61,794 nt of DNA from an uncultured Clostridia bacterium (GTDB taxonomy: Bacteria > Bacillota > Clostridia > RGIG6154): positions 1 to 61,794 of the forward strand of contig CAKSDT010000001.1 in the NCBI GenBank assembly GCA_934446135.1. The letters run 5' to 3'. Under the pieces are notes generated by a model. The model saw only the letters and a program-made list of their open reading frames with translations. It was not told the origin of the DNA and searched no databases. This document shows positions 24,664-57,884 of this stretch, piece after piece; the stretch's first letter is position 1; the number at the start of each line of letters is the position of its first letter. A program made the translations under genes and the position numbers.

Positions 24664-24821
24664 AAAAGCAAGCAGAAAAACCTTGAACCCTCGGTGGTTT
24701 CAAGGTTTTTTTATGTGGTTTATTTTGGACAGCAGTTATCCGAAAATTAATACGCTTAGGTTATATACAGAACATTGTATTGATATTTTTTTACTTGCGG
24801 CAGACCGACTTTTTCGGCAGC
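24664..24821 (+). repeat. Copy 1 of a ~160-bp conserved non-coding module (second copy at 43638-43797)
   Basis: By eye about 80% identical to 43638-43797. Shared features are AAAAGCAAGCA, a terminator hairpin AACCTTGAA..TTCAAGGTT + T-run, TTGGACAG.GGTTATCCGAAAATTAATACGCT and ...CTTGCGGC..CAGAC..TTTTTCGGCAG. Confidence 0.7.
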
Positions 24822-24859
24822 CAGATCCCCCGTATAATTGGGGGATTTCGTTATACAAA

Positions 24860-34000: not shown

Positions 34001-35035
34001 TTAATTATTTTCTTCAAGTTTTGAGTTTATTTTATCCAAAGTTGAAGAGAGTCTTGAGTGTCTTATATGGGTATAGATATTTCTTGTGGTTGATATATCT
34101 GCGTGGCCCATTATTTCCTGGGTATCTTTTTCGTCTATATTCCATTCAAAGAGAAGGGTTGTGAAAGTATGACGGAGTTGATGAGGGGTTATATTTATGC
34201 CGATTGTTTTTACATAATTATTCCAATGTGTTTGAAAGTATGATTTTACCATATAATTTCCGTTTTGGGAAAAGATTATGCCCTTTAGGTTATGTTTTAA
34301 GAGTTGGGATTTAAGTTTATTTACGAGAGGGACTTGGCGTTTTCCTGCCTGTGTTTTTGGTTCTTTAAGGCAAGGGGTGTTACTATGATGTTCTATTGAT
34401 TTAGTCACATAGATTATATTATTTTCAAAATCTATATCCTTATCGGTGAGGGCGAGTGCTTCGCCTCTTCTCAAGCCGGAATAAAGGAGGAGGAAAGCGA
34501 GAAGTCCGAAGTCTTTATCTACATTTTGATCAACGATTTTGATTTGCTCATCTGAGAGAGCGGAGCGGTTTATTTTTGGCTGTCCTTTAGGCGGGGAGAT
34601 ATAGAGTGCGGGATTTTCCGATATATATCTTTTTATCACGGCGTATTTAAAAATCATTTTAATTACGGAGGATTGATCCTTTATACTTTTAGTGCTGAAT
34701 TTTTGAGATACCATATCATTTAGGATTTGGGATATATCCTGAGGGGTTACCGACTTTATATATATATTTCCGAGTGACGAAGTTGCTCTTTTTACAAGTG
34801 ATTTATAGCGGTAAGATGTTTGATACATAATATTTTTATAATGCTGTTCCTCCCACTCATCGGCAACTTGTTTGAAAGTCGGGCCTTTTTCGATTTTTCC
34901 CTGATAATCAAGCATTTGTTTTTCTATATCCTTAAGGGCCTTCTTTTCGGTTGGTTCTGCGGAATAAAAAAAGACTCTGTTTCCGTTTATTGTTTTGGAT
35001 TTACAGAATCTTCCGTCTTTTCTTTTTGTGAGCAT
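34001..35035 (-). CDS. int: Tyrosine-type site-specific integrase
   Basis: 344-aa ORF with catalytic-domain motifs LLYSGLRRGEALAL, HQLRHTFTTLL and GHADISTTRNIYTH. Confidence 0.9.
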   Translation of the reverse strand: MLTKRKDGRFCKSKTINGNRVFFYSAEPTEKKALKDIEKQMLDYQGKIEKGPTFKQVADEWEEQHYKNIMYQTSYRYKSLVKRATSSLGNIYIKSVTPQDISQILNDMVSQKFSTKSIKDQSSVIKMIFKYAVIKRYISENPALYISPPKGQPKINRSALSDEQIKIVDQNVDKDFGLLAFLLLYSGLRRGEALALTDKDIDFENNIIYVTKSIEHHSNTPCLKEPKTQAGKRQVPLVNKLKSQLLKHNLKGIIFSQNGNYMVKSYFQTHWNNYVKTIGINITPHQLRHTFTTLLFEWNIDEKDTQEIMGHADISTTRNIYTHIRHSRLSSTLDKINSKLEENN

Positions 35036-35070: not shown

Positions 35071-36594
35071 TTATGAATTTGAGTGCCATGTGAATGCCCT
35101 TCTGAATCCGTTTTCTTCTGCTTCTTTTGTTGTTGATGCGTAGAATTCACCTTCCGGGTAGTTTATTTGTATATTATCATACTGTTGGTCAAACGGAAGA
35201 TGATATATTTTTTCGCCGGTTTTCCGTGAAATATTACATTTAACACAAGGATAATTTTTATCAAATTCGAAATTGTCCTTAATGATTATATTTAACTTTT
35301 CTGCGTATCTTTTTGCTGTGTCTGACAGTGAGCAAGTTGTTATCAAAACCCCTTTTATGTTAGGAGGAACTGCAAATTGAATTTGGTCTTTATTTTTATC
35401 TGCACAATATGCAATCATAGTTCCGAACAGTTGAAAAATATGTTTTTCATGAATTGTTTTGTGCTGACTCCAATATTTGCATTGAATTATTAATGTTTCG
35501 GTTTCGTTTTTGGCAATAATATCTCTTCCCAGATCGTCAAGTCCTTTTGTTGCACCGAAAAAAGTCACCTTATAGTTTTTACTTTCATATAAATACCCTA
35601 CATATCTTTCGAAGGATATTCCTATTTCCCAATTTGACTTTTTGCGTTTCTTGTACCTATCAAGTGCTAATTGGAACTTTTCAGTATCAGAAAGTTTTTT
35701 GTATTCTATGGGAGATACATACATCTTTATGTTTTCATATTCTTCATCTTCAGACTTAATATTAAATACTTCTTTTATTTCTTCTATTTCTGAACTTGTA
35801 GGGGTTTTGAAATCTGAGAGCCACGGAACGGCATACTCATATGCTTCTAATTGATATTGCAACAAGCGATATTCCTTTTCAATTGTTCTCAAATTTTGCC
35901 GCAACATTTTCATTGTTTCTGCTGCTTTGAGTGCAGGCAACTTTTTATTTTTAAAATATTCTTCATACTTTTGATTCAGATAATCTCTATAGTCGGAAAA
36001 AAGTTTTGAAAAATAAGGCAAGGCATTTTCTTCATTTGAAACAATTTTATTAATATCTTTGATTGTTTTTTCCTTGAAATCTTTTGCTTTTTTTTGGATT
36101 GACAGAGCCTCTTTTTTTGCCTTCTCAACAAATTCGGGACATTCGAGATAGTCATAGTTATCAAAATAAACAGAATATAAATCGCCTTTTTTGTCCTTTA
36201 AAATTGTTTCTTTATACGGCTCTAAAACATTATTGACAGGTTTGCCTTCTTCATTTATGCCAAAGCACAGATGTCCGCCATTGTTAAAATAGACGGATTG
36301 AAGTCTGTAAACTGTATCGTATTTATCCCTTGATTCGTAATTGCTAAAGGCTTTATAACTGGTAACTTCTATGCAGGCACGCAATGAATATTCTGCATTT
36401 GAACTCATTCTTCTTAATTTTATAAGATACGAATTTGAATAAGATGCCGGAGCATAGTGACCGTCTTTTATAAGGGCTTTTATCATTTTTTTCTTTTTTC
36501 TGTTTAGAATGAGTTTTAAACGCAGTGATTTAATTGCCTCATATATCATATACAAGAACATAACAACAACATAGAATATAACAATATCACCCAT
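35071..36594 (-). CDS. Membrane-anchored protein with a C-terminal Mrr-like (PD-(D/E)xK) restriction endonuclease domain; candidate prophage defence/exclusion factor
   Basis: 507-aa ORF with an N-terminal TM helix (IVIFYVVVMFLYMIYEAI) and a K/E-rich ~300-aa region without motifs I recognise. This is followed by FERYVGYLYE...GLDDLGRDIIA...LIIQCKYW (Mrr_cat-like) and a CVKC...KIYHLPFDQQY...EAEENGFR tail. Confidence 0.6.
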   Translation of the reverse strand: MGDIVIFYVVVMFLYMIYEAIKSLRLKLILNRKKKKMIKALIKDGHYAPASYSNSYLIKLRRMSSNAEYSLRACIEVTSYKAFSNYESRDKYDTVYRLQSVYFNNGGHLCFGINEEGKPVNNVLEPYKETILKDKKGDLYSVYFDNYDYLECPEFVEKAKKEALSIQKKAKDFKEKTIKDINKIVSNEENALPYFSKLFSDYRDYLNQKYEEYFKNKKLPALKAAETMKMLRQNLRTIEKEYRLLQYQLEAYEYAVPWLSDFKTPTSSEIEEIKEVFNIKSEDEEYENIKMYVSPIEYKKLSDTEKFQLALDRYKKRKKSNWEIGISFERYVGYLYESKNYKVTFFGATKGLDDLGRDIIAKNETETLIIQCKYWSQHKTIHEKHIFQLFGTMIAYCADKNKDQIQFAVPPNIKGVLITTCSLSDTAKRYAEKLNIIIKDNFEFDKNYPCVKCNISRKTGEKIYHLPFDQQYDNIQINYPEGEFYASTTKEAEENGFRRAFTWHSNS

Positions 36595-42360: not shown

Positions 42361-42492
42361 GCGGGCGGTTTTTTGAAAGTGGATTTTTTGAGAGCGTTTT
42401 TCGGGAGCGGTTTTTGAGAGCGTTTTTCGGGAGCGGTTTTTGAGAGTGGTTTTTGAGAGTGGAATTTTGAGTGGGTTTTGATTGAGGGGTTT
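42361..42492 (+). repeat. Iteron-like tandem repeats (GAGAGYGGTTTTT units) immediately upstream of the Rep gene
   Basis: GAGAGCGTTTTTCGGGAGCGGTTTTT occurs twice, then GAGAGTGGTTTTT twice, then GAGTGGAATTTT and GAGTGGGTTTT. All have the same polarity and are C-poor. Confidence 0.7.
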
Positions 42493-43275
42493 ATGAGAAA
42501 ATATAGGGAACAGATTTATGATTTAGGAAATTACAAGCAGATTAACATATATCCTGTTTTTAAGAAAGCGGGGGACAGGAGGAAAAGGTTTCAGCCGACA
42601 TCTGAGGTGCAGGCGGCACTTAACAGAAAAAATTCGGCGGAGCATTTAGAGAGGCTTATCACACTAAACTTTACGGGAAAGGACCACTGGGTACACTTAA
42701 CTTATGATGAGGAGAACAATCCCGGAAGTGTTGATGAGGCGTACAGAGATATTGCGAATTACATAAGGCGGATAAAGAGGAAGTATGACAAGGCGGGGCT
42801 TTTATTTAAATACATCATTGTGCCTGAAAAGGGAGAAAAGAGCGGAAGAAAGCATTTTCATGTTTTTATGACAGGCGGAATAGGAAAAGAAGTGATTGAG
42901 GATTCGTGGGGATTTGGAATTGCCAGGGCAGACAGGATAAAGTTTGGGAAAAAGGGGGTATTGCCCCTTGCGAAATACTGCACAAAGCAGAAATTAATGA
43001 GAAAGAGATATATTTGTTCAAAGAATTTAGCCAAGCCGGAGTCCAGAGAGCGTGACGGGAAGATTTCGGGCAGGCAATTAAGATTTTGGGCTGAGTTTAA
43101 GGATTTTACATACGGCGGAGTTTTAGAGAAGTTATATCCGGGTTATGAATTATGTTTTGAACCCGAGATTTCGGAAAATCAGGTAAACGGGGGAATGTAT
43201 ACAACGATAAATTTAATCAGGAAAGAATATTTGGAGGAAATTGAGTCAGGGTATCGGAAAAGAAGAGCAAAATAA
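42478..43275 (+). CDS. HUH-superfamily rolling-circle replication initiator (Rep)
   Basis: Motif 1 is HWVHLTY, motif 2 (HUH) is KHFHVFMTGG, and motif 3 is LAKYCTKQK (catalytic Tyr). The real start may be ATG 42493 (MRKYREQIY). Confidence 0.55.
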   Translation: MIEGFMRKYREQIYDLGNYKQINIYPVFKKAGDRRKRFQPTSEVQAALNRKNSAEHLERLITLNFTGKDHWVHLTYDEENNPGSVDEAYRDIANYIRRIKRKYDKAGLLFKYIIVPEKGEKSGRKHFHVFMTGGIGKEVIEDSWGFGIARADRIKFGKKGVLPLAKYCTKQKLMRKRYICSKNLAKPESRERDGKISGRQLRFWAEFKDFTYGGVLEKLYPGYELCFEPEISENQVNGGMYTTINLIRKEYLEEIESGYRKRRAK

Positions 43276-43338
43276 AAAGTCGGGTATGCGGTTTTGCCGT
43301 ATGCCCTTTAAGTGTTTAAAAAAAGGGGGGGTGAGAGA

Positions 43339-43638
43339 GTGAATTTTAAAAAAAGGCTTGATTATTTAAAAGGCGACAGAAGAAGGTATGAGGCGTTTAA
43401 AAGTGCCGGGGTTGAAAGGAGAAATTTTTACAAAAGGTATGAGGAAAACGAGGCAGTTGTAAAATCTGCGATAATGAGGGTAAGCGACATATACTACAGG
43501 TTTATCTTATATGATTTTTACATCAAAGGGTACACGGTTTCGAAAATTGCCGAAAGGTTAGGATATTCCGAAAGCCACATCAAGAGGCTTAAGAAAGACG
43601 CCGTTGCAGAAGTTATCAAAAAGAGCAGGGAGAAATGA
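43339..43638 (+). CDS. Sigma-70 region-4-like HTH protein (DUF1492/ArpU-like late regulator candidate)
   Basis: The preferred start is GTG 43339 after GGGGGGTGA. The C-terminus YIKGYTVSKIAERLGYSESHIKRLKKDAVAEV is a sigma r4-type HTH, and the gene sits just before the packaging genes. Confidence 0.5.
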   Translation: MNFKKRLDYLKGDRRRYEAFKSAGVERRNFYKRYEENEAVVKSAIMRVSDIYYRFILYDFYIKGYTVSKIAERLGYSESHIKRLKKDAVAEVIKKSREK

Positions 43639-43797
43639 AAAAGCAAGCAAAAAACCTTGAAATCTTGGGAGTTTCAAGGTTTTTTATGTATTTTCATTAT
43701 TTTGGACAGTGGTTATCCGAAAATTAATACGCTCAAATTATATGCGGAAAATTGTATTAATATGTTTTGCTTGCGGCCGGCAGACTTTTTCGGCAGT
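43638..43797 (+). repeat. Copy 2 of the ~160-bp conserved non-coding module (copy 1 at 24664-24821)
   Basis: See copy 1. As with copy 1, it lies between convergent genes. Confidence 0.7.
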
Positions 43798-43831
43798 CTG
43801 AGCACTCGCCTTACAAAGGCGGGGGCTAATT

Positions 43832-44143
43832 TTACAAAAAATTTATGTAGTTGCGTCTTCCGTAGATAACACGCAATATATATACCGTGTTTTTTTCGGC
43901 ATTTACCCTGTAAAACACAATATAATTTTTTACAGATACCTTTCTGTAGCCTTTGGCTTTAAGCCTTTTATCCAAGCACAGAGGAAACGCAAGAGGATTT
44001 AATGAAATTGCGTCGATAACCGATTCTATTTGTGTCAAAAGATTCTTTGCGGCAGTGGGATTTTTTAACACATTAACGATATGTGAAACAATACTGTCAA
44101 TATCGTTTTTGGCTTCATCGGCAATAAAAAGTTTACAAGCCAT
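43832..44143 (-). CDS. Type II toxin, RelE/ParE family
   Basis: 103-aa ORF whose C-terminus YRVNAEKNTVYILRVIYGRRNY is typical of RelE/ParE. It overlaps the antitoxin gene by 11 nt. Confidence 0.8.
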   Translation of the reverse strand: MACKLFIADEAKNDIDSIVSHIVNVLKNPTAAKNLLTQIESVIDAISLNPLAFPLCLDKRLKAKGYRKVSVKNYIVFYRVNAEKNTVYILRVIYGRRNYINFL

Positions 44144-44393
44144 ATTTTTCCCTTATGCTTTTTACTGATTCTTTTGCATCAGAGATATTGCCGTTTATCA
44201 CTGATTCTTCGCCCTTTTCGAGTTTATTATACAAAGAATTAATATAAAGAGCCTTTTCATAAGATTCCATACTCATAATGACCATATCGCCGTATCCGTT
44301 TTTTGTTACAAAAACAGGTTCGTTTGACGAATGGCATATATCAGATATTCTGCTTGTATTTTTTAGGTCGCGTATCGGTATTATACGGGGCAC
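44133..44393 (-). CDS. Type II antitoxin, Phd/YefM-like
   Basis: 86-aa ORF with a GTG start after AAGGAG. The N-terminus IPIRDLKNTSRISDICHSSNEPVFVTKNGYGDMVIMSMESYEKAL fits Phd/YefM. Confidence 0.75.
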   Translation of the reverse strand: MPRIIPIRDLKNTSRISDICHSSNEPVFVTKNGYGDMVIMSMESYEKALYINSLYNKLEKGEESVINGNISDAKESVKSIREKYGL

Positions 44394-44449: not shown

Positions 44450-44544
44450 TTTATAATGTTTTGGGAAAGTTATGATACCCTATGAACTTGTATGATACCC
44501 TATGATACTATAAAATATTAAGAGAAAGGAGGTTTTTTGACGAA

Positions 44545-45021
44545 ATGGCGAGAGGACAGAAGACCGGAAGAGAGCAGATTATCAAAATATTTACTGTTTA
44601 TGCGGCGTCGCACAACATCAATCAGACTGCGAAGGAACTTAAAATGAGTTACAACACTGTTAAGGGCATTATAAAGAAGTATGAGAACGAAGATTTTGTT
44701 AAAAAACTTCTCAGCAAAAAAAGTCAGGAGTTTTCAAAGCGGGCCGACGGGATAGTGGATTCTCTTTTATTGCTTTTGGAAAGAAGAGTTTGCCGGGCAC
44801 TTGAGGCTGAAGCCGAACTTGACAGAATCATATCGGAAATTGAAAAAGACGGTACTCTTTCGGAGGGAGCAAAGAAAAGTGCCGTTAAGGCGATAAATGA
44901 CATTGCGATTAAGCGTGGGGTTGACATTACTACGATGATTGGTACGCTCCGTGACAAGTCTGCGGTTGCAAAAGGAGAGTTAACCGAGAACACGAAAGTT
45001 GTTATATCGCTTGAAGAGTGA
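44545..45021 (+). CDS. Putative terminase small subunit (HTH protein)
   Basis: 158-aa ORF directly upstream of terL with an N-terminal HTH (NINQTAKELKMSYNTVKGIIKKY). The assignment is by position only. Confidence 0.45.
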   Translation: MARGQKTGREQIIKIFTVYAASHNINQTAKELKMSYNTVKGIIKKYENEDFVKKLLSKKSQEFSKRADGIVDSLLLLLERRVCRALEAEAELDRIISEIEKDGTLSEGAKKSAVKAINDIAIKRGVDITTMIGTLRDKSAVAKGELTENTKVVISLEE

Positions 45022-45233
45022 GCGGGATTTGAGTTAGGAATTAGGAATTAGGAGTCAGGAGTTTGGAGTTTGGAAAGTGAAGTCGGACGGATGGGAGCAG
45101 ACAGACGGAAGTTGAGTACGGAAGTGAGTACGGAAGCGGACAGACGGAAGTGAGTACGGAAGTTGGGCGAGTGATTGCGTGAGTTTGGAAGTTGAGTGAA
45201 TGGGGGAAGGCTGAGAAGGGGACAGATGTATGG
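45022..45233 (+). repeat. C-poor purine/T-rich degenerate tandem repeats between terS and terL
   Basis: TTAGGAA occurs 2-3 times, GGAGTTTGGA twice, GGACAGACGGAAGT twice and GAGTACGGAAGT three times. All three + frames are closed. Confidence 0.75.
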
Positions 45234-46727
45234 ATGAAAAGGTTAGAGATTGAGATAAAAAAAGATGTGTTCAACCCGGCATATTTGCCCTATTTATTTG
45301 ATTATGACACCAAAAGGCTTATATTTTACGGCGGAGCAGGTTCGGGGAAAAGTTATTTTATTGCCGAGAGGTTTATATTAAAACTTTTAAACATTTCAGG
45401 CTGCAACATTTTGGTTGTAAGGCAGGTGGGGGACACTAACAGGAATTCGACTTTTGCACTTTTCAGGCAGGTTATTGACCGTTGGGGGCTTGGGAGATAT
45501 TTCAGGTTTAACACAAGCAATTTATCTGTAAAGTGCATATTAAACGGGAACACGGTTATATTTAAAGGGCTTGACAACATTGAGAAGTTAAAATCCATTA
45601 CATTTGAGACAGGGGAACTTACAGATGTTTGGATTGAGGAGGCTTCGGAGACTGAGGAAGTGAGTCTGAACCAGTTAATTACAAGATTAAGAGGCGGGAA
45701 AAGCAAGAAGCAGATAGTTATAAGTTTCAACCCTGTTTCTGTAAATCATTGGCTTAAGAGAAGATTTTTTGATATAAAGCAGACGGCGAAGAAAGTTAAA
45801 ATTTTACACACAACATACAAGGACAATTTATTTATAGATTCGGACTACAAAGAGGAACTTGAGAGTTTTAAGGTTACAGACCCTTATTATTATCAGGTTT
45901 ACTGTTTGGGAGAGTGGGGTGTTTTAGGAAAGAGTATATTTCCGAAAGACAATGTTCAAAAAAGAATCAATCTTAGGATTATGCCGGTTATTTTGGGATA
46001 TTTTGAGTATGAATATGACGGGCTGTTACTCAAAAACATCAGGTTTAAGGAGTCGGAGGACGGATTTATTAAAATATACCGTTTGCCCCAAAAAGGAAAG
46101 GACTATGTTTTGGGAGGAGATACGGCAGGCGAGGGGTCTGACAGGTTTACCGGGCAGGTACTTGACAGGTTCGGAAATCAAGAGGCGGTTCTTTTAAAAG
46201 AATTTGATGAGGGGGAATATGCAAGGCAGGTTTACTGTTTGGGAAAATATTACAACGACGCACTTTGTGCCATAGAAACAAACTTTTCGACATTTCCGGT
46301 AAGGGAGTTAGAGAGGCTTTTATATCCCAACTTATTTGTGAGGATAAGAGAGGACACATACACGAAAAAGCCTGTTAAAAGTTTTGGATTTCAGACAAAT
46401 TCTGTTACGAGGCCGATTATTATTTCAAAGTTAGTTGAGAAGATGACATTTAATTCAGAGACGGTATCTGACCTTGACACGCTTTATGAGATGCAGACAT
46501 TTGTAAGAAACGAAAAAGGAAGGCCGGAGGCCGAGCAAGGTTCGCACGACGACCTTATTATGGGGCTTGCCATTGCAGAATATGCAAGGGAGCAGTTGCC
46601 CGTTTTGATTCCGAAAGAGGAGATAAAAAAAGTTAAATGGACCGAAGACATGTATGAAGATTACTACGGAGCCCAAAGTGAGGAAGAGAGAAAAGAGATC
46701 ATAAGGCGGTATGGGAATCCGTTTTAG
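45234..46727 (+). CDS. terL: Terminase large subunit
   Basis: The start is taken at MKRLEIEIKK (M15 of the ORF-track entry). It has Walker A FYGGAGSGKS, Walker B-like DVWIEEASE, and a C-terminal nuclease-like HDDLIMGLAIA. Confidence 0.85.
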   Translation: MKRLEIEIKKDVFNPAYLPYLFDYDTKRLIFYGGAGSGKSYFIAERFILKLLNISGCNILVVRQVGDTNRNSTFALFRQVIDRWGLGRYFRFNTSNLSVKCILNGNTVIFKGLDNIEKLKSITFETGELTDVWIEEASETEEVSLNQLITRLRGGKSKKQIVISFNPVSVNHWLKRRFFDIKQTAKKVKILHTTYKDNLFIDSDYKEELESFKVTDPYYYQVYCLGEWGVLGKSIFPKDNVQKRINLRIMPVILGYFEYEYDGLLLKNIRFKESEDGFIKIYRLPQKGKDYVLGGDTAGEGSDRFTGQVLDRFGNQEAVLLKEFDEGEYARQVYCLGKYYNDALCAIETNFSTFPVRELERLLYPNLFVRIREDTYTKKPVKSFGFQTNSVTRPIIISKLVEKMTFNSETVSDLDTLYEMQTFVRNEKGRPEAEQGSHDDLIMGLAIAEYAREQLPVLIPKEEIKKVKWTEDMYEDYYGAQSEEERKEIIRRYGNPF

Positions 46728-46809
46728 AGGTTATCGGGTGGTTCGGAAAGTTTTGAGGATTTGGAAGATTTGAGGATTGGGAAGTTTTTTAGGAGAAAGG
46801 AAAATTAAG
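46728..46809 (+). repeat. Short C-poor GA/T repeat spacer between terL and portal
   Basis: GAGGATTTGGAAGATTTGAGGATTGGGAAG-type repeats run up to the RBS AGGAGAAAGGAAA. Confidence 0.6.
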
Positions 46810-48792
46810 ATGGCGGGAGTTATGATTTATTCCGGGCTTAAAGAGCCGGAGGAAAAGCAGAGGCTTTCTGCATGGAGGGAGCGGTATGAAGCGGCAAAGA
46901 GCCGATACAGTGACGAATTAGCGAGGATAAGGGAATATACTGAGTATCTTCAGGGGACAAAGAAGATGATTAAGTACGGCAGAGAGGGGAAAAAGCCCAA
47001 AGACGCCTTACTTTCGAGAAACATTTGTTATGAACTTATCGAAGCACAGATAGACAACAACATTCCCATGCCGAAAGTTACGGCGACCAGGGAAGAAGAG
47101 GTAGGTCTTGCGGTTAAGATTGAGAACAAGATGAGAAACGAGATTGAGAGGCTGCCGTTTCTTACCATGCTTGACCTGCAGGAGAGGGAAACGCCGACTG
47201 ACGGAGGTTCGTTTTTCCTTATTGAGTGGGACAACACGCAAAAGACGCACAACACTGTAGGAAATTTATCTGTGAGGGTTTTATCTGCGTCCCAGGTTAT
47301 TCCGCAGCCCGGAGTATATGAGATTAAAGATATGGACTACATATTTGTAAGGCTTTCGCAGACAAAGAAGTTTATTAAAGACAACTACGGGGTTTCGGTA
47401 TGCGGGGAAGGCGAGGAAGAGACGGAGTACAAGTCGCTTTCGCCCGACGAAAACAGCGAACTTATAACCCAGGTTATATGTTATTACAAAAATTCGAAAA
47501 GCGGGATAGGAAAATTTTCTTTTGCAGGGGACACTGTTTTAGAGGACATTGAGGACTATCAGGCAAGGATTTTAAAGCGGTGTGTGAAATGCGGAAAAAT
47601 TGTTACTGCCGACGAGTGCGAATGCGGAAGCAGGAGTTTTGAGTTTAAAGAAGAAGAGTTTGAGAAATTGGAGTATGACATTACAGAAACCGTAACAGAT
47701 GAAACGGGGCGTGAAGAAACAGTTATAAAAATTCCCAAAGGAACAAAGATACCTTACTTTAAGCCTGACATTTATCCTGTTATATTAAGGCGGAATGTTT
47801 CAAAATTCGGTTCGTTTTTAGGGTCTTCGGACATTGAACTTATAAAGTATCAGCAGGACATCATTAACAAATGCGAAACAGACTGTCTTGAAAAGATGCT
47901 TAAGGGCGGTTCTATAGTAACGCTTCCCAACGGGCTTAAGGTTCAAAACAGCGATGAAAACTTCAAGATAGTTAAAATTGACAATGCTTCGCAGATTGAT
48001 ATGATCAAAGCCATTAACATTCAGCCTGACACGGGAAGGACCGAAAACTATGCCGAGATGCAATATCAGAGGGCAAGGCAGATTTTAGGAATTACCGATT
48101 CATTTCAGGGAAGAAAAGATTCGTCTGCAAATTCGGGTACTGCAAAACAAGCGGCAATTCAGCAAACAGCAGGAAGGCTTGAGTCCAAAAGGATTATGAA
48201 AAATTCCTGTTTTTCGGAATTATACAAAGCAATGACAATGTTTCTTATAGCATTTGCTGACGAGCCCAGAACTTTGGTTGTTGAAACAAAGAACGGGGAT
48301 TCGGTTTATGACACCTTTTCAAAGTATGATTTTCTGAAAAAGGACATTGAGGGAAGTTATTACTATTCGTTTGATTATTTATTTTCAACCGACAACACCG
48401 GAACTCTTGCTTCAAACCGTGAGGCTTTATGGCAGGAACACGCACAGAATCTGGCAAGAGGTGCTTTCGGAGTGCCGAACGAAACAGACACTCTTATTGT
48501 GTTCTGGCAAAGTATGTTATCTGCACATTATCCGAATGCAGGGCGGATACTTGCTTCTTTAAAAGACAGGATGACTCTTGAAAAGCAGTACAATATGCTT
48601 CTTCAGGAAAACGAGCAGTTAAAAGGGGAAAACGCCCGGCTGGGTGAAGGAATAGACCAATTAGGGCAAAGAAACACGGAGTTATACGACGAGGCCGAGA
48701 ACTACCGGAGAAGTTTTGAGGACATATCGGGGTACGGCAATGAAGGCGGGGCAGGCGAAAACGCTTACGGCAATGTGCCGGGAGCGGATTAA
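46810..48792 (+). CDS. Putative portal protein (with embedded Cys4 zinc-ribbon)
   Basis: 660-aa ORF immediately after terL, assigned by size and position. It has an internal CVKCGK...CECGS motif and a C-terminal coiled/charged tail. Confidence 0.6.
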   Translation: MAGVMIYSGLKEPEEKQRLSAWRERYEAAKSRYSDELARIREYTEYLQGTKKMIKYGREGKKPKDALLSRNICYELIEAQIDNNIPMPKVTATREEEVGLAVKIENKMRNEIERLPFLTMLDLQERETPTDGGSFFLIEWDNTQKTHNTVGNLSVRVLSASQVIPQPGVYEIKDMDYIFVRLSQTKKFIKDNYGVSVCGEGEEETEYKSLSPDENSELITQVICYYKNSKSGIGKFSFAGDTVLEDIEDYQARILKRCVKCGKIVTADECECGSRSFEFKEEEFEKLEYDITETVTDETGREETVIKIPKGTKIPYFKPDIYPVILRRNVSKFGSFLGSSDIELIKYQQDIINKCETDCLEKMLKGGSIVTLPNGLKVQNSDENFKIVKIDNASQIDMIKAINIQPDTGRTENYAEMQYQRARQILGITDSFQGRKDSSANSGTAKQAAIQQTAGRLESKRIMKNSCFSELYKAMTMFLIAFADEPRTLVVETKNGDSVYDTFSKYDFLKKDIEGSYYYSFDYLFSTDNTGTLASNREALWQEHAQNLARGAFGVPNETDTLIVFWQSMLSAHYPNAGRILASLKDRMTLEKQYNMLLQENEQLKGENARLGEGIDQLGQRNTELYDEAENYRRSFEDISGYGNEGGAGENAYGNVPGAD

Positions 48793-48843
48793 AGCACAAG
48801 CATATAAAACATTTTGATTTATTTACGGGAGGGGGGTGAGAAT

Positions 48844-48975
48844 ATGAACAAAGGTTATCAGGGTCAGATTAAAGGCGGTCCTTGTTTTAGTGTAAATGCA
48901 CCTATTAAAAGAGGGGGCGGAAAAGAACCCAAAGTTATAACGGGCGGGGACTTAAGAGTCGGCAAGAAGAAGTAA
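48844..48975 (+). CDS. Small basic Gly/Lys-rich protein (43 aa)
   Basis: Below the ORF-track cutoff; translates to MNKGYQGQIKGGPCFSVNAPIKRGGGKEPKVITGGDLRVGKKK, with a strong RBS GGGAGGGGGGTGA. Confidence 0.35.
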   Translation: MNKGYQGQIKGGPCFSVNAPIKRGGGKEPKVITGGDLRVGKKK

Positions 48976-49055
48976 GAAAAAAAGGCTGCGGAAAATGCCG
49001 GCAAGAATGAAAAAAACGGAACAGGGCAAAGGTTGTTCCGGCAAATCGCAAGGAA

Positions 49056-49340
49056 ATTTCGGCGGATTGTGTGGGGGTTTCGGCGGATTGCGTTGGGAAT
49101 TCCGGCGGATTGCGTGGGGGGTTCAGCGGATTGCGTTGGGATTTCAGCGGATTGTGTTGGGATTTCGGCGGATTGCGTGGGGATTCCGGGCGTATTGCGT
49201 GGGGAGTTTCGGGCGTATTGCGTGGGGGTCGGCAAATTGTATGGGAATTTTGGAAAATCGCATGGGAAAAGCGTAAAAATACCGTTCGCAGGGTGAAAGC
49301 GTAAAAATACTATTCGCAGGCAATGCGTAAAAATGCAGAA
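49056..49340 (+). repeat. Nine tandem ~21-bp repeats (C[GA]GCGGATTG[CT]GT[TG]GGG...) followed by three ~27-bp GCGTAAAAAT repeats
   Basis: The repeat core starts at 49060, 49081, 49103, 49124, 49145, 49166, 49187, 49210 and 49230. GCGTAAAAAT units occur at 49271, 49299 and 49325. Confidence 0.85.
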
Positions 49341-49353
49341 AGGTTGGAAGAAT

Positions 49354-50205
49354 ATGGATGAAAATTTGACAGAAAATTTGACAGAAAATGTTAATGAAGG
49401 TATTGATGAAGAATTAAAGGAAAGTTTAAATGAAAATTCAGGTGAGGCTGAGGACATTTCGGGTTTTGGGAATGAGAGCCGGGATGATTCTGAAACTGCC
49501 GGACAAGATGAAGATGATGTTAAGAGAAATCAGAATGCACAGAGCCATGAGGAAAATTCGCGGTTTGCAGAGATGAGGAGAAGGAGTCAGTACAGAGAAC
49601 TGTCCGACAGAGTTGAGCGGTTTGCCAAGCAGAGCGGATACGGCTCATTCGGGGAAATGGAGTCTGCCCAAAAGCAGAAAGAGATTGACGATTTCACCTC
49701 GGATTTTGAGAAAAAGACCGGTCTTAATTATGAAGATATAAAAAAAGCGGTTTTACATATCGAAAAAAACAGTCCGGCAATGGAAGTGCTTTCAAGGCTT
49801 GCACATGACGCTGAGAAAAATGCAGCTGAGAGTGCTTTCAGCAAGGGAATGGAAAAGATATCCGAGTTATACGGGGAAAAAATAACTTCGTTCGGCGAGT
49901 TGGAGAAACTTCCCAGGTTTGAGGAGTTTGACCGCATAGCAAGGACCGGTATGCCTATTGAGGACGCCTTTAAGTTATCTCATTTTGACTATCTGATTGA
50001 AAGAGCGGGTCAAAAAGGAAAAACATCGGCTATAAAGCAATTCGGTTCTAAGAATCATTTATCGCCTGCTAAGGGAAGTTCTGAAGACGGGGTATCTGTT
50101 CCGCCGGAAATTATGGAAGAATACAAGATTTTCAATCCTAAGGCTTCCGACAAAGAAATAGCGGAGCATTACAAAAGGCACTTAAAAGAAATAAGCGGCA
50201 GGTAA
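49354..50205 (+). CDS. Putative scaffolding protein
   Basis: The start is taken at MDENLTENLTEN. The protein is acidic and predicted helical, and lies between the portal and capsid genes. Confidence 0.5.
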   Translation: MDENLTENLTENVNEGIDEELKESLNENSGEAEDISGFGNESRDDSETAGQDEDDVKRNQNAQSHEENSRFAEMRRRSQYRELSDRVERFAKQSGYGSFGEMESAQKQKEIDDFTSDFEKKTGLNYEDIKKAVLHIEKNSPAMEVLSRLAHDAEKNAAESAFSKGMEKISELYGEKITSFGELEKLPRFEEFDRIARTGMPIEDAFKLSHFDYLIERAGQKGKTSAIKQFGSKNHLSPAKGSSEDGVSVPPEIMEEYKIFNPKASDKEIAEHYKRHLKEISGR

Positions 50206-50276
50206 TGCTAAAAAAGTGCGGGGGGAACGGATTAAAAAAGTCTGTTCTCCCGAAAATTGAAAAAAGGAGAGTAATT

Positions 50277-50636
50277 ATGGCTAAAATCAAATATTGCGGA
50301 AACATGGGAACGCCGCCGGCAGTTACTATTGCAAAAAAAAGCGGTGTTACATACAAAGCCGGTGCATTTTTAGCATCGGACGGGGGGATTGCGACAGCAG
50401 TTCCGTCACTTATTGCGGTCGGAGTTACTGACAGTGAAGTTATTTGCAACAGAGTAAGAAAAGACGACATTTTTGAAACAACTTTATCTGCTGCAGGGAC
50501 TGACCTTGATGTAGGTGACAAAGTGACTCTTTCGGCTGACGGAACAAAGGTTACTGCCACCACTACGGCAGGTTATGCCGAAATTATCAAACTTTTCGGC
50601 ACTGCAGAGGGTTCTAAAGTGCTTATAAAGTTTTAG
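50277..50636 (+). CDS. Putative head decoration protein (DUF2190-like)
   Basis: The start is MAKIKYCGNMGTPPAV after AAAAGGAGAG. It is ~120 aa, Gly/Ala/Val/Thr-rich, and lies directly upstream of the capsid gene. Confidence 0.45.
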   Translation: MAKIKYCGNMGTPPAVTIAKKSGVTYKAGAFLASDGGIATAVPSLIAVGVTDSEVICNRVRKDDIFETTLSAAGTDLDVGDKVTLSADGTKVTATTTAGYAEIIKLFGTAEGSKVLIKF

Positions 50637-51094
50637 AAAGTATTAATTAAGTTTTGAAAGGCACTTATTAAGTTTAGAAAGGCACTTATTAAGTTTAGAA
50701 AAGTATTTACAAAGTCTTAAAGAGTGTTTAGGGAGTTTGGAAAAGCAATTGTAAAGTTTGGAAAAGCGGTTGTAAAGTCTTAAAAAGTGTTTATAAAGTT
50801 TTACAAAGCGTTTACAAGGTCTTAAAAAGTGTTTAGGGAGTTTGGGAAAGCAATTGTAAAGTCTTAAAAAGTGTTTATAAAGTTTTACAAAGCGTTTACA
50901 AGGTCTTAAAAAGTGTTTAGGGAGTTTGGAAGAGCGGTTGTAAAGTCTTAAAAAGTGTTTATAAAGTTTTACAAAGTATTTACAAAGTCTTGAAAAGCGG
51001 TTAGAGGGGTTTTGAAAAGTGCTGATAAAGTTTTAAGAGGTGCTTTTTAAAGTCTTAAAGAGTACTTATTAAGTTTTGGAAAGGAGAAAAGATT
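50637..51094 (+). repeat. ~450-bp array of helically phased A/T-tract decamers with exact 42/84-bp higher-order repeats
   Basis: GTCTTAAAAAGTGTTTA occurs at 50777, 50819, 50861, 50903 and 50945 (exact 42-bp spacing; a variant occurs at 50987). The sub-units are GTCTTAAAAA / GTGTTTATAAA / GTTTTACAAA / GCGTTTACAAG, i.e. 10+11+10+11 bp. Confidence 0.9.
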
Positions 51095-52105
51095 ATGATA
51101 TTTTCAGTAGGTTCGGGGGTTAATGATTCGGTATTCGGCAAGAGTCAGGAGCCTATAAGAATGATGATGGAAAAGGACATTGAGGGTTTTGAACAAAACT
51201 CGGTTGTAGGAACGGTATTTAAAAAAGTCAATTCAAAATCGTTTGCCGAGAAATTTACATCTATGACGGCACTGGGAAATTTTGAAGATGTAGGAGAAGG
51301 CGGTGCATATCCCGTAAGCGAGAAGCAGGAAGGATATGACAAAGTTATTTCTGCAAGAGAGTGGAAGCAGTCTTTTGTTATTACTCAGACTATGGTAGAG
51401 GACAACAAGATACTGGATTTACAGGGCGGTGCTTTGGGATTTACCCAGGCATACGGCAGAGGAAAAGAGGAATTCTGCTGCGGACTTTTAGCAGGTGCCA
51501 CAAGCACGCAGGCAAACATTTTCGGCAGGAATTATGACGCCACATCGGCAGACAATGTTCCGCTTTTTTATGCTTCGCATCCGTCTGTTACGGGTGAATG
51601 CGATGTTCAGAGCAACATTTTTTCGGATTCCTGTTCTTCGATTTCGGCGGCAAAGTCTGCTATAGGAAAAGTTGCGGTTAAGATGAGCAACTTTAAAGAT
51701 GACAACGGCCATTTATTAAGCGTTAATCCCGACACTATCATTATTCCCAACGATTACACGGTTATTGACGCTGTATTCGGGGCTATAGGTGCTGAAAAAG
51801 ATCCGGCTTTAGCGGGCGGAAACGGTTTTAACTACAATTTCGGAAAATGGAATGTAATTGTATCGGGTTATCTTAATTCTATGGTTACATCAGCCAACAC
51901 TGCACCTTTTATTTTATTTGATTCAAAATACAACGAAAGAGTCGGCGGTGCTATATTCTTAGACAGGGTTCCGCTTACCGTTAAATCATACATTGACGAA
52001 AACACTGACAACAATGTATGGAAAGGAAGAACAAGATATTCTGCAGGCTTTAACAACTGGAGAGCCTTTGCCTTAGGCGGAATATCTACGGCGTCGGTGG
52101 CCTGA
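51095..52105 (+). CDS. Putative major capsid protein
   Basis: 336-aa ORF with RBS GGAAAGGAGAAAAG. It follows the scaffold and decoration genes and is followed by a terminator hairpin. Confidence 0.6.
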   Translation: MIFSVGSGVNDSVFGKSQEPIRMMMEKDIEGFEQNSVVGTVFKKVNSKSFAEKFTSMTALGNFEDVGEGGAYPVSEKQEGYDKVISAREWKQSFVITQTMVEDNKILDLQGGALGFTQAYGRGKEEFCCGLLAGATSTQANIFGRNYDATSADNVPLFYASHPSVTGECDVQSNIFSDSCSSISAAKSAIGKVAVKMSNFKDDNGHLLSVNPDTIIIPNDYTVIDAVFGAIGAEKDPALAGGNGFNYNFGKWNVIVSGYLNSMVTSANTAPFILFDSKYNERVGGAIFLDRVPLTVKSYIDENTDNNVWKGRTRYSAGFNNWRAFALGGISTASVA

Positions 52106-52141
52106 ACAAACAGGGGTGGTTTGATACGCCTTATGAAAGCC

Positions 52142-52170
52142 AAAAAGCAGGGCGTTAGCCTTGCTTTTTA
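52142..52170 (+). terminator. Intrinsic terminator after the capsid gene
   Basis: Stem AAAGCAGGGC / GCCTTGCTTT (one G-U pair), loop GTTA, then TTTTT. Confidence 0.6.
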
Positions 52171-52651
52171 TGATATTGGGAGAAAAGTTAGAAGTTGCGG
52201 AGTGAGAAGTTTTGAGTTTGGAGTGTGGAGTTTGGGAGTTAGGAGTTTGGAGTTGCGGGGTTTGGGAGTGCGGAGTTTGGGAGTGTGGAGTTAGGGAGAG
52301 TGGAGTTTGGGAGTGAGCGAGAGTGTATGAGTATGAAGTTGTATGAGAGAGTGTGAGGCTGTGTGCGAAAGTCGGACGGGCGGAAACGGACGGAGGCGAG
52401 TGGTTGTGCGAGTGTGAGGTTGAGCAAGTGAGGAAGTTGTGCTGAATTTGAGGCTGTGCGAGCAGGAAGCGAACGGGAGCGGAAGTCGAGCGAGAGGACT
52501 GTGCGGGCAGGAAGCGAGGGCGGCAAGTGAGTGGAAGTGAGGTTGCGGAGTTGTGGAGTGTGGGAGAGTGGAAGTGAGTGCGGAATGTGAGCGAGTACGG
52601 AAGTGTGGAGTTTGGAGTTGGGTGAGTTAAGAGAAAGGAGGAAAAAAAGGA
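52171..52651 (+). repeat. ~480-bp C-depleted G/T/A degenerate repeat array rich in GGAG words
   Basis: 15-bp units occur (GGAGTTTGGGAGTGC, GGAGTTTGGGAGTGT, GGAGTTAGGGAGAGT), followed by GTGAG/GGAAG-type repeats. My hand count is about 32 C in 52201-52620. All + frames are closed, and the array ends at the RBS AAAGGAGG. Confidence 0.85.
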
Positions 52652-53281
52652 TTGAGGACATTTTTGAGTTTGGAAAATGAGGTATTGGGGCTTATGTTTT
52701 CTAATTCTGCCGGAGGGCAGAAAGTGACTGTTGACGACGCGTCGGTTAAAGAGTATGTGATTAACATGCGTGACTGTTACAATGCGGGGGTAAGGGACAT
52801 TTCGTTTTTTTATCCTCAAAAGAGGGAATATTCATTTATTGCCCAAAAAGGCGTTGAAACTTTGGACCTTAGGAAAGAAGATTCGGATTTTATGAATTTA
52901 AGCGGCGTTAAAGTGTATGAGGAGGCAGAAAGCGGATTTAGAAACTTTTACAATTTCAGTGTGATAGGGGAAAGCGTTATTATAATTTCGGCAAGTGAAG
53001 GTTTAAGATACACTGTTATTTACAATGCTTATCCCAAGGTTATGAGTGAAACGGACCCGGACAGCACTGTGCTTTCGCCCTGTGACGCGGTATTGGACGC
53101 GGTATGTTACTACATGGCGTCGAGGCTTTATGCAGAGGACGACATTACGCTTAGCACGCAGTATATGAACATTTACGAGGAGAGAAAAGCAAGGCTTTAC
53201 GAGAGGTATCAGATTATGGAGGCAGAAAGTCAGAGTTATTCAGGGTTTGACGGCTTTTATTCCGAAAGGGGTTGGTTTTAA
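52652..53281 (+). CDS. Hypothetical structural protein (possible head-tail adaptor)
   Basis: 209-aa ORF with a TTG start 10 nt after AAGGAGG; assigned by position after the capsid gene. Confidence 0.35.
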   Translation: MRTFLSLENEVLGLMFSNSAGGQKVTVDDASVKEYVINMRDCYNAGVRDISFFYPQKREYSFIAQKGVETLDLRKEDSDFMNLSGVKVYEEAESGFRNFYNFSVIGESVIIISASEGLRYTVIYNAYPKVMSETDPDSTVLSPCDAVLDAVCYYMASRLYAEDDITLSTQYMNIYEERKARLYERYQIMEAESQSYSGFDGFYSERGWF

Positions 53282-56003: not shown

Positions 56004-57884
56004 ATGAGTATTAAAAAGATTACCGAAAAAGAGATTTCGGAAAATCAGGTACAGGGCAGGGAAAATCCGCTTTCGGGTTCGGTTACGGAAAATCAGTCGG
56101 TTTTTGACAGGCTTCCGAAACTTGCTGTAAGCAAGATAAACGAGGCGGCGGAGTTTTTAAATTCGTTTTATGCCGAATTTAAGGCACACAGTGAAAAGTC
56201 TGTTTTGGACCATCAGGACGGAGCGGTGACCGGAGAAAAGATAGCAGGCGGTGCAGTGACCGAAAGTAAAATTGCGGACGGAGCGGTGAGTGAAAGTAAG
56301 ATAGCGGACAGGGCGGTGACAGAAAGTAAGATAGCGGACAGGGCGGTGACAGAAAGTAAGATAGCAGACGGTGCGGTGACAAGTAGCAAGATTGCAAACC
56401 TTTCCATTACCACAGAAAAGATAAGCGGAAGTTCCGTTACAACTGACAAATTGGCAGATATGTCGGTGGACGAAAACAAACTTAAGAATGGGTCTGTTTC
56501 TAATTACAAATTAAAAAGCAACTCGGTAACAACTATAAAAATAGCCAATGAAGCCGTAACAGAAGACAAGCTATCAAGTGAATATAAAGATAAAATTTCG
56601 GCTGAATTTGAAAAAAAAGCGGACAAAGAAGAAGGAAAAGGATTATCCCAAAACGATTTTACCGACGCATACAAAACCAAACTTGACAATGCCTTGACGG
56701 AACATCAGGACATTTCTGGTAAAGAGAACAAGATATTATATGGTTATTATGATTATGCCAACAAATATTTTGTAGACTCCGATTCTCAGCCTATTGAAAA
56801 TGTTGAAAATCAATTATACTATGATGTTGGGCTTAATGTTTTATACCTTTACAGGGCTGAAAAGTTTAACCTTGTAAGCAAGACTTTATTTGGATTTTTT
56901 GACAGTCCTGATTTTATAGGTAGCGATGGATTTCCTTTGGTTAAAACTAAAGAGTGTTTATATATCGATACTAATACTAATTTTGCTTATATTTGGAACG
57001 GTACTGAGTTTATTAAAACAAAAGGCTATGACGATTCAGATTTAAAGTCTGAGATTGAGGAGTTAAAAGATATAGCAAACAACACAAAGACAAACACTTT
57101 AAAAGGAGAGGAAAGTGTGGTTATTACTGATTCTGTCAAGTTACTTCCTGCAAAGGGAATTGAGATTTTCGGAAACAGCGTTCAGGACGGAACGCCGGCA
57201 ATAACTGCCCCTTATGAGATAAAAAGTGTTACAAATCCGACGGTTTCGTTTTCATACGGCGGCGAAACAAAGTCTGTAACATTTGAGGGAATTACTTTAA
57301 GTGGAGTTACATCTGCAAAAGACAGGATTTATGTAAAAGCCGGAAAAGTGTATTTGGAGCAGAACATAAAAAATTCTGTTCCGTCGGTATTTATGAGTGC
57401 AAATGCTGTTGAAAATTTATACGACCCCAACAGAGCAGCCGTTAATTTCAACAGTCAGTATTCGCATGCAGACGATGTTATGTCAAACATCGGCATGCAC
57501 AGGGTTAAATACGGAGTTGACGGTGTGCTTCACTGGTACATACAGGACAACAATTCAAAGGCAATGTCTTTTATAAACATATTTCCGGCTGCGTCTTCGG
57601 ACTGGACAAACGGGCAGACGGCTTATCAATGGATTATTGACAATGCAGGTATGCCGTTTGAGTATCAATACAGGTTAAAAACTCCGAAAGTGACAGAAAT
57701 AACAGGTGAAAGTTCTCTGCTTCTTTTAAGCATTTTAAGCGAAATAAAGTATGAAAGTTTTACCGTTTCATTTTCTGCTTCGAACGGGGTTCCGGTTACG
57801 GGAAGCGTTACATACAGTCAGGATTTAGACAAAGTTATTGAAAAATTAACAAATGCGGTAATAGCGTTAGGAGGAAACATATAA
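56004..57884 (+). CDS. Tail fibre / receptor-binding protein with 10-aa tandem repeats
   Basis: 626-aa ORF with about 12 consecutive GAVTESKIAD-type decapeptides followed by a unique C-terminal domain. Confidence 0.6.
   Translation: MSIKKITEKEISENQVQGRENPLSGSVTENQSVFDRLPKLAVSKINEAAEFLNSFYAEFKAHSEKSVLDHQDGAVTGEKIAGGAVTESKIADGAVSESKIADRAVTESKIADRAVTESKIADGAVTSSKIANLSITTEKISGSSVTTDKLADMSVDENKLKNGSVSNYKLKSNSVTTIKIANEAVTEDKLSSEYKDKISAEFEKKADKEEGKGLSQNDFTDAYKTKLDNALTEHQDISGKENKILYGYYDYANKYFVDSDSQPIENVENQLYYDVGLNVLYLYRAEKFNLVSKTLFGFFDSPDFIGSDGFPLVKTKECLYIDTNTNFAYIWNGTEFIKTKGYDDSDLKSEIEELKDIANNTKTNTLKGEESVVITDSVKLLPAKGIEIFGNSVQDGTPAITAPYEIKSVTNPTVSFSYGGETKSVTFEGITLSGVTSAKDRIYVKAGKVYLEQNIKNSVPSVFMSANAVENLYDPNRAAVNFNSQYSHADDVMSNIGMHRVKYGVDGVLHWYIQDNNSKAMSFINIFPAASSDWTNGQTAYQWIIDNAGMPFEYQYRLKTPKVTEITGESSLLLLSILSEIKYESFTVSFSASNGVPVTGSVTYSQDLDKVIEKLTNAVIALGGNI
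56220..56579 (+). repeat. In-frame 30-bp tandem repeats inside the fibre gene
   Basis: GAVTGEKIAG GAVTESKIAD GAVSESKIAD RAVTESKIAD RAVTESKIAD GAVTSSKIAN LSITTEKISG SSVTTDKLAD ... The central copies are nearly identical at the DNA level. Confidence 0.85.

Follow-up and report, generated by a model that had tools for sequence, protein, structure and literature searches.

Phage late operons are the textbook case of compact, translationally coupled genes. In the ~28 kb prophage carried by contig CAKSDT010000001.1 of an uncultured Clostridia bacterium, which was analyzed over its whole length (61,794 bp; hereafter the window, to which all coordinates refer), six gene junctions within the stretch from the replication gene to the head genes contain minisatellites (arrays A0 to A5), which the phage tolerates or possibly uses. 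The closest described systems are the variable-number tandem repeats (VNTRs) of bacteria and phages, slippage tandem repeats that serve in multilocus VNTR analysis (MLVA) typing. Like these, the arrays consist of head-to-tail units of 7–84 bp with higher-order repeats, and they show unit-sized insertions and deletions between near-identical strains without sequence conservation in distant relatives. Head-to-tail units, copy-number polymorphism and an origin by local duplication, by which VNTRs and minisatellites are recognized, are all found here, the origin of A1 and A5 aside. Unlike usual VNTRs, the six arrays stand at successive junctions of one phage, take up ~6% of its genome, share one polarity and are C-poor, and several of their seeds can be recognized as a gene end, a ribosome-binding site (RBS) or a control element.

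The 5' mRNA stabilizers of Bacillus known as STAB-SD (as in the cryIIIA leader) and ribosome standby sites place Shine-Dalgarno (SD)-like words in untranslated RNA, ahead of the true RBS. The arrays also lie upstream of true RBSs, but their complementarity to the anti-SD is not above what composition gives, strong sites are depleted, and they are arrays rather than a single defined site. With sponge RNAs of the CsrB/RsmZ type they share many GGA triplets in a non-coding transcript; they differ from them in having no Rfam match, no enrichment of A(N)GGA and no evident presentation of the triplets in hairpin loops. The start-associated sequences (SAS) and extended SAS (ESAS) of cluster K mycobacteriophages, and the stoperators of cluster A, are repeated non-coding motifs upstream of starts, in each case single short motifs that are conserved cluster-wide. 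The arrays, too, are repeated non-coding motifs immediately before start codons, but they are long and tandem, with a different unit at each junction, and hypervariable between strains. Iterons and the boxes of pac sites (e.g. SPP1 pacL/pacR) are direct repeats, as are A0 beside rep and A1 beside the gene at the small-terminase (terS) position; the sequence of A1, however, appears not to be kept between strains with the same proteins (its distal part differs in L115), and similar arrays occur here at junctions unrelated to replication or packaging. The original prediction, made from the sequence alone, knew of no described phage system organized in this way, and none was found in the literature or in searches of Rfam, GenBank phages and IMG/VR. 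Megablast of the region against GenBank phages gave no match, a scan of IMG/VR for the A5 unit pattern returned only an unrelated three-heptamer element, and scans of IMG/VR for the Rep patterns returned nothing. Among 196 related phage loci (2.0 Mb), no locus outside the phage's own clade carries more than one non-coding array of 60 bp or longer, and the array architecture is exceptional among related phages.

Five of the junctions had been singled out in that prediction, and their sizes are exact: 45022–45233 (212 bp, between the terS-like gene and terL), 46728–46809 (82 bp, terL to portal), 48976–49353 (378 bp, a small ORF to the scaffold-position gene), 50637–51094 (458 bp, a small head gene to the major capsid gene) and 52106–52651 (546 bp, capsid to adaptor gene). 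All five hold tandem repeats (Tandem Repeats Finder, TRF, scores 68–441), have every sense frame closed, share the same polarity and reach the RBS of the downstream gene, as had been described. A sixth array of the same style, beyond the range of the earlier description, lies directly upstream of rep (A0, 42365–42492, C 6%). Over the six arrays, which together amount to ~1.8 kb, TRF periods are 7, 12, 13/26, 15, 17, 21, 28, 37 and 42/84 (scores 49–441), and all three stop codons occur. Poverty in C holds for four of the five junctions (8.0, 2.4, 6.3 and 8.2%, against 15.9% in the window) but not for the spacer before the scaffold-position gene, which has an ordinary 14.0%; an earlier hand count of 32 C in the 420 nt from 52201 to 52620 agrees exactly with computation. 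Since the phage baseline is already low in C (13.5% at four-fold sites, ~11% in other intergenic DNA), the arrays are ~1.5–2-fold C-depleted rather than threefold. Given this depletion, it is automatic that sense frames are closed and antisense frames open, because stop codons contain no C.

The birth of a repeat can be read most directly in A4, which comprises, beyond the gene end itself, ~21 copies of a 21-nt gene-end unit in strict register (50637–51094, + strand; TRF score 441), with higher-order repeats of 42 and 84 bp. TRF and a second repeat search agree that the repeat starts inside the upstream gene. Its seed, 50616–50636, is the last seven codons of the small head gene, stop codon included (AAAGTGCTTATAAAGTTTTAG, K-V-L-I-K-F-stop), and the next 18 rows of 21 nt are in register with it, each identical at 13–19 of 21 positions (6.6 ± 2.1 expected by chance). 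This in-register identity identifies A4 as a native gene end that has been copied ~20 times. The K-F-stop end is kept in the homologues of relatives, in which ~20 nt separate it from the capsid ATG. Microhomology (AAAG) flanks the unit, and the last units hold the capsid RBS. Unit 2 (50637–50657, AAAGTATTAATTAAGTTTTGA) differs from unit 1 at 6 of 21 nt and still reads K-V-L-I-K-F-stop; all of the changes are synonymous, including one from TAG to TGA. Such synonymous-only change suggests that the copy was once coding, as would be the case if diverged alleles of the gene end had undergone unequal crossover.

Two further arrays are built from sequence close to the downstream start. A2 consists of 17-nt units (46728–46809, + strand; TRF score 68), and its last, diverged unit holds the portal SD (AGGAG). 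In A0, the unit is 13/26 bp (TTTTTGAGAGCGG/TTTTTCGGGAGCGG; 42365–42492, + strand; TRF score 125), and the final copy of the repeat family overlaps both the RBS and the ATG of rep. At the position of A0, the relative L023 has a shorter G/T-rich stretch. GC-rich phages with homologous Rep proteins (31–35% identity) have G-rich tandem repeats (GGACGGGGGACGAAG) upstream of rep (L090, 5850–5900; L069, 5620–5740), and these precede a conserved inverted repeat that is a candidate nick site.

The spacer before the scaffold-position gene has two parts. A3a is formed by about nine degenerate copies of a 21-bp unit (ATTTCGGCGGATTGCGTGGGG; 49055–49250, + strand; TRF 210–238) and is hypervariable. A3b comprises three copies of a conserved element, TCGCA-N7-8-GCGTAAAAAT (49258–49340, + strand). 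The motif TTCGCA-N4-10-GCGKAAAAA is present exactly once in each close relative (L018–L024), always just upstream of the scaffold gene, and A3 appears to multiply this conserved control element. The 21-bp units of A3a resemble the A3b element and may derive from it. A3b is a candidate late promoter or operator of the scaffold and capsid genes. In its fuller form, TTCGCA-N4-10-GCG(T/G)AAAAA(T), it does not fit sigma-70 spacing, and it may be the target of the sigma-r4-like regulator that the phage encodes.

A1 begins with 7-nt units (TTAGGAA/TTTGGAG) and continues with 12-nt units (ACGGAAGTGAGT; 45022–45233, + strand, detected by TRF, C 8%). A5 (52171–52651, + strand; TRF 132 and 88) combines 15-nt units (GAGTTTGGGAGTGTG) and 37-nt units with a G-rich core of low complexity; its middle (~52316–52528) is low-complexity rather than clearly tandem. 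The onset of A5 lies 3' of a terminator hairpin (52142–52169) and its end is the adaptor RBS, and the junction as a whole (52106–52651) is 44% G and 8% C. The two arrays are colinear (local score 55 against 31 ± 5, and glocal 161 against 119 ± 7, for dinucleotide shuffles), and the words GGAGTTTGGAG, GAGTACGGAAGTG and GTCGGACGG, which had been reported as common to them, do occur in both. Judged by this alignment, A1 and A5 are paralogues, the sole such pair among the arrays. The proposal of a dispersed family in place of independent slippage consequently applies to A1 and A5 only, while A4, A3, A2 and A0 are amplified local sequence. In L023 (61% capsid identity), a 31-nt repeat (AGTGAATAGCTATTAGCTGTYAGCWGTTAGC, made of UAG-N4 heptads) occurs at 8428–8458 and 11110–11140, i.e. 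at the end of the portal gene and directly behind the capsid terminator, which mirrors the A1/A5 pair on a small scale. A HutP-like reading of the UAG-N4 heptads of A1 and L023 was considered and rejected, as the search of the phage ORFs yielded neither a HutP-like protein nor any other that binds RNA. Another junction repeat where assembly breaks is seen in L018, the contig of which begins (1–105) within four GTGATATG repeats, with a short hairpin after each, immediately before the portal gene.

The arrays are retained in all independent assemblies of this phage (98–99.9% identity), and each array differs in at least one of them; since the compared genomes were assembled from short reads and contigs of the clade regularly break at the arrays, misassembly may account for some copy-number differences. 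Samples in which the phage occurs are ERZ28615481, ERZ27287561, ERZ27287548, ERZ4567535, SRR34978761 and SRR24884076, and the relative with 81%-identical terL (L114, see below) is in ERZ28573803. In A0, a 26-bp unit is deleted in L197 (~99% identical); apart from this deletion, the units of L197 and L198 show no difference. In L115, the terL DNA of which is 98.3% identical and the terS gene of which was not recovered, A1 keeps the 50 nt next to the RBS but is rearranged distally. A2 is longer or different in L115 and L116, and both contigs break inside it. L116 has deletions of 20 and 45 nt in A3a, together with 14 substitutions in the A3 spacer as a whole, mostly in the 21-bp array (3.7%, against 1.4–2.2% in the flanking genes), and the three 28-bp A3b elements are invariant. 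In A4, 84 bp are deleted in L015 and 42 bp inserted in L017; A5 has an 8-bp insertion in L017 and 3 substitutions in L016. More distant relatives, at 60–65% (L018–L024) and 44–50% (L001–L014) capsid identity, have tight junctions and no arrays, that between the small head protein and capsid genes being ~20 nt. An intermediate case is L114 (terL 88% identical in amino acids and 81% in nucleotides), where at least 319 nt of unrelated sequence (C 6.9%), with a 26-bp repeat of its own, lie upstream of terL. The original prediction had named free variation in array length among close relatives, with no change in late gene expression, or the lack of arrays in them, as grounds for giving up a function. 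For the part of this test that concerns sequence, length and sequence do vary freely between strains that are 98–99% identical, and the relatives at 60–65% capsid identity are array-free. Six contigs of the clade end at arrays (L016, L017, L114–L116 and L197), and relatives represented by long contigs are for this reason biased towards array-free phages. As a practical matter, phages with such arrays will be under-represented among long viral contigs because short-read assemblies break there, and gene callers place spurious antisense ORFs across the arrays.

Taking these observations together, we think it somewhat probable that the arrays are hypervariable, lineage-private minisatellites that arose by slippage or unequal recombination and act as passive, transcribed, C-poor spacers. 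Each would have been born by slipped-strand or unequal-recombination copying of the original junction sequence, with the last seven codons and stop of the upstream gene as the seed of A4, the RBS-proximal spacer as that of A2 and A0, and the scaffold-upstream control element as that of A3; one spacer would have been copied between two junctions to give A1 and A5. The inclusion of the RBS in the final copies of A0, A2 and A5 speaks for such a junction origin. The ancestral junctions would have been 13–20 nt long, C-free and purine/T-rich, with an SD sequence and a stop codon, and the short junctions of relatives are indeed 0–5% C and purine/T-rich, with an SD sequence. Amplification of such junctions yields arrays that are C-poor, of one polarity, furnished with GGAG words, closed in the sense frames and ended by the true RBS, and these properties would thus be inherited rather than designed. 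GGA exceeds dinucleotide-shuffle expectation in A1, A3 and A5, an excess that amplification of a GGA-containing unit explains.

A phage-wide bias of the sense strand (G>C and T>=A) would push composition in the same direction. At four-fold sites, G is 0.27 and C 0.135 across the phage, compared to ~0.13 and 0.15 in host genes, and the sense strand is purine-loaded over 38000–61794 (+:- counts of 58:0 for AGAGG, 50:0 for GAGAG and 22:0 for GGAGGA). Variants within the arrays occur at 0.086 per site for T>C and 0.120 per site for A>G, indicating that C is not actively purged inside them. The G/T enrichment possibly stems from deamination of the displaced single strand in rolling-circle replication; a gradient in four-fold GC skew away from a rep-proximal origin was looked for, and no trend was seen along the genome. 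The arrays would be transcribed within the late operon as passive intercistronic spacers, removing translational coupling, and would be tolerated because their low C content disfavours Rho loading and because they lack any hairpin of the terminator type followed by a U-run. A strain-variable coding VNTR in the tail-fibre gene (see below) suggests that this genome is prone to slippage, and the phage encodes a rolling-circle-type Rep, which we also count in favour of the minisatellite origin. Promotion of short-repeat recombination by single-stranded intermediates is established for the rolling-circle plasmids of Firmicutes, and a similar link may hold here.

Several points weigh against a passive minisatellite origin. 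All six arrays fall within 10 kb, rep to adaptor gene, and no other phage junction has one, a clustering that a uniform slippage process does not predict. The unrelated C-poor spacer of L114 would mean that the architecture is either maintained or repeatedly regenerated. Given the usual deletion bias, the share of a ~28-kb genome occupied by the arrays is an unusual inert load, and their C content (6–8%) is still below that of other phage intergenic DNA (~11%). Some of the copy-number differences, as said, could be errors of short-read assembly. If the arrays are neutral, they would offer a rare view of slippage or unequal recombination in a phage with a rolling-circle-type Rep, the copying of seven codons and a stop some 20 times being legible in the sequence itself.

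A weakened form of the original idea holds that the arrays are RNA spacers selected for composition, in which C-poor leaders uncouple the head cistrons and set their stoichiometry, by keeping the downstream SD unpaired, resisting Rho loading, offering weak 30S standby or acting as RNase J1-blocking or RNase Y entry sites, so that each head cistron would be translated and degraded independently. Every array does end at a good RBS, and the head module, in which the arrays are concentrated, is where protein stoichiometry ranges most widely. However, low-copy genes (terL, portal and rep) are preceded by arrays too, 20-nt junctions suffice in relatives at 60–65% identity, near-identical strains differ freely in array length, and the C content of A3 is ordinary. 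The description of the arrays as rich in SD words did not survive comparison with dinucleotide shuffles: using a generic Firmicute anti-SD (the host's own 16S lies outside the window), sites at or below -6 kcal/mol are no more frequent than in shuffles. Strong sites (at or below -8 kcal/mol) are depleted, with 4 against 9.9 ± 3.1 in A5, 2 against 4.7 in A1 and 0 in both A0 and A2. Weak SD-like sites number 3.3–6 per 100 nt in A5, A2, A0 and A1, against ~2 in coding sequence, which favours selection for composition, but in A3 and A4 they are fewer than in coding sequence. A role as an anti-SD sponge was rejected, since anti-SD duplex energies show no enrichment over shuffles. The supposed lack of RNA structure is likewise true in part: A1, A2 and A5 fold less than coding RNA, and no differently from their own shuffles, whereas A0 and A3 are more structured than coding RNA, owing to G-U pairing, and A4 is about equal. 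Searched against Rfam at E <= 1, the arrays gave no match, the only hits being three host tRNAs, and neither A(N)GGA nor two-tetrad G-quadruplex motifs exceed expectation in them. What keeps selection for composition in consideration, as an unlikely but serious alternative, is the clustering at six junctions, the proportion of the genome involved, and the persistence in L114 (81% terL nucleotide identity) of a long C-poor spacer at the same junction despite full sequence turnover. If it is correct, the arrays would represent a new kind of tunable intercistronic regulator.

A stronger version, which we consider quite unlikely, is that a temperate, gut podovirus-like clade actively maintains fast-turnover spacers selected for composition (C-poor, G/U-rich and terminator-free) that uncouple the head cistrons and tune their translation and decay. 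Such maintenance would make the arrays an evolvable alternative, tunable by copy number, to the tight translational coupling of related phages.

It is distinctly improbable that the arrays as a set are protein-binding sites, with A0 as Rep iterons or part of the origin, A1 as a TerS pac array and A3 as multiplied sites for a late activator. The positions of A0 and A1, next to rep and the terS-like gene, would suit this, as would the short G-rich repeats upstream of rep homologues in L023, L069 and L090, the triplication in A3b of an element that all close relatives keep before the scaffold gene and that is unchanged in L116, and a sub-period of ~10.5 bp in the units of A3 and A4. On the other hand, six arrays have six different units, A1 is rearranged in a strain with 98%-identical terL, the A4 unit is demonstrably a copied gene end, and no extra DNA- or RNA-binding protein such as HutP turned up among the small ORFs. 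From motif position and conservation, a protein-binding role is plausible for A0 and A3b only and not for the whole set.

Very improbable is a role in recombination, in which the arrays would be G/T-rich Chi-like or RecA-preferred tracts, or homology at module boundaries, with the task of shielding rolling-circle tails or of favouring exchange between phages. Composition is strand-specific, with much G and T, the synonymous-only change in A4 unit 2 suggests unequal crossover of diverged alleles at a boundary, and sequence has been exchanged between A1 and A5. However, known Chi words of Firmicutes and E. coli are not enriched in the arrays (the host's own Chi may differ), and the strand skew of AGCGG (58:5) is part of the general purine skew of this strand; skewed purine-rich words extend across the whole phage and match order-2 Markov expectation. 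No other phage in IMG/VR carries the scanned A5 pattern and no GenBank phage matches the region at high identity, so that in these two sets the arrays cannot serve as shared boundaries. It is scarcely credible that the arrays are assembly artefacts or code for protein, whether in antisense low-complexity genes or by sense translation through recoded stops: gene callers do predict antisense ORFs of 140–248 aa and most unit lengths are multiples of 3, but a strand with little G has open antisense frames in any case, no antisense ORF has a Pfam match, and at least seven independent assemblies, made from different samples with different pipelines, contain the arrays. Recoding of stop codons, prompted by the KVLIKF-stop heptads, was rejected: TAG, TGA and TAA each end ordinary phage genes, and no suppressor tRNA is present.

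In the window, host genes extend to a cluster of three tRNA genes at 33.5–33.8 kb, and the prophage comes next. It begins with an integrase gene (34001–35035), adjoined by a gene for an Mrr-like restriction nuclease (35071–36594), followed by two genes of the helix-turn-helix (HTH) repressor type and a small early operon. The Rep gene (replication initiator, rolling-circle type; 42493–43275, + strand) matches PF23343 (REP_ORF2-G2P, 1.8e-12), phrog_3584 (1e-60) and phrog_3419. Next to it is a gene for a small sigma-70 region 4-like regulator (43312–43638, + strand; PF04545, 2e-7; phrog_248, annotated as transcriptional activator), which is a candidate late activator. A ParE/Phd toxin-antitoxin pair (43832–44393) is encoded on the opposite strand between the regulatory and packaging genes. 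The gene at the terS position (44545–45021, + strand), directly before terL, specifies an HTH protein with a weak HTH_28 match. Large terminase (terL, 45234–46727, + strand; PF04466, 7e-55) and portal (46810–48792, + strand; phrog_156, 7e-33) genes follow, then a conserved ORF of 43 aa (48844–48975, + strand; phrog_30605), which has a counterpart of 43–44 aa at the same position in L018–L023. The scaffold-position gene (49354–50205, + strand) is assigned by phrog_35275 and by synteny with relatives.

The small head-module protein (50277–50636, + strand), a putative decoration protein that the original prediction named as such, has a C-terminus (V-L/Y-V/I-K-F-stop) that is kept in relatives. 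The first 24 codons of the 143-aa ORF in which it lies (50205–50276) have no counterpart in homologues, and the start is probably the ATG at 50277, i.e. M25 of that ORF; with this start, the scaffold gene and its neighbour probably do not overlap, contrary to what the ATGA suggests. The major capsid gene (51095–52105, + strand) matches PF25209 and phrog_371. It is followed by the intrinsic terminator-like hairpin mentioned above (52142–52169, + strand), a 12-bp stem and then a U run, with z = -3.3 for the folded 80-nt stretch 52106–52185; an equivalent hairpin is present after the capsid gene in most relatives at 60–65% capsid identity. The adaptor gene (52652–53281, + strand) is SU10-like, with a weak PF24175 match and an N-terminus that aligns with relatives, and homologue alignment bears out its TTG start at 52652. 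The late genes after it code for a 900-aa protein, a tail fibre, an amidase and a holin. A promoter and terminator scan gave counts equal to those of shuffles, and only the post-capsid hairpin and a hairpin at 43649–43685 look real.

An element of ~160 nt (43640–43800), made up of a terminator hairpin and conserved downstream sequence, lies between the late-activator-like gene and the ParE gene, and a second copy of it (83% identity) is found at 24680–24830, on the host side of the contig. Immediately 5' of the terS-like gene, TATGATACCC is repeated ~3.8 times (44471–44508) next to a perfect minus-strand sigma-70-like promoter (44449–44421) that faces the toxin-antitoxin pair; this repeat and promoter region is probably a late promoter/operator region. 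The VNTR in the tail-fibre gene (56216–56381) is in frame and has 5.5 copies of a 30-bp unit, with one unit fewer in L016, and may be a source of host-range variation.

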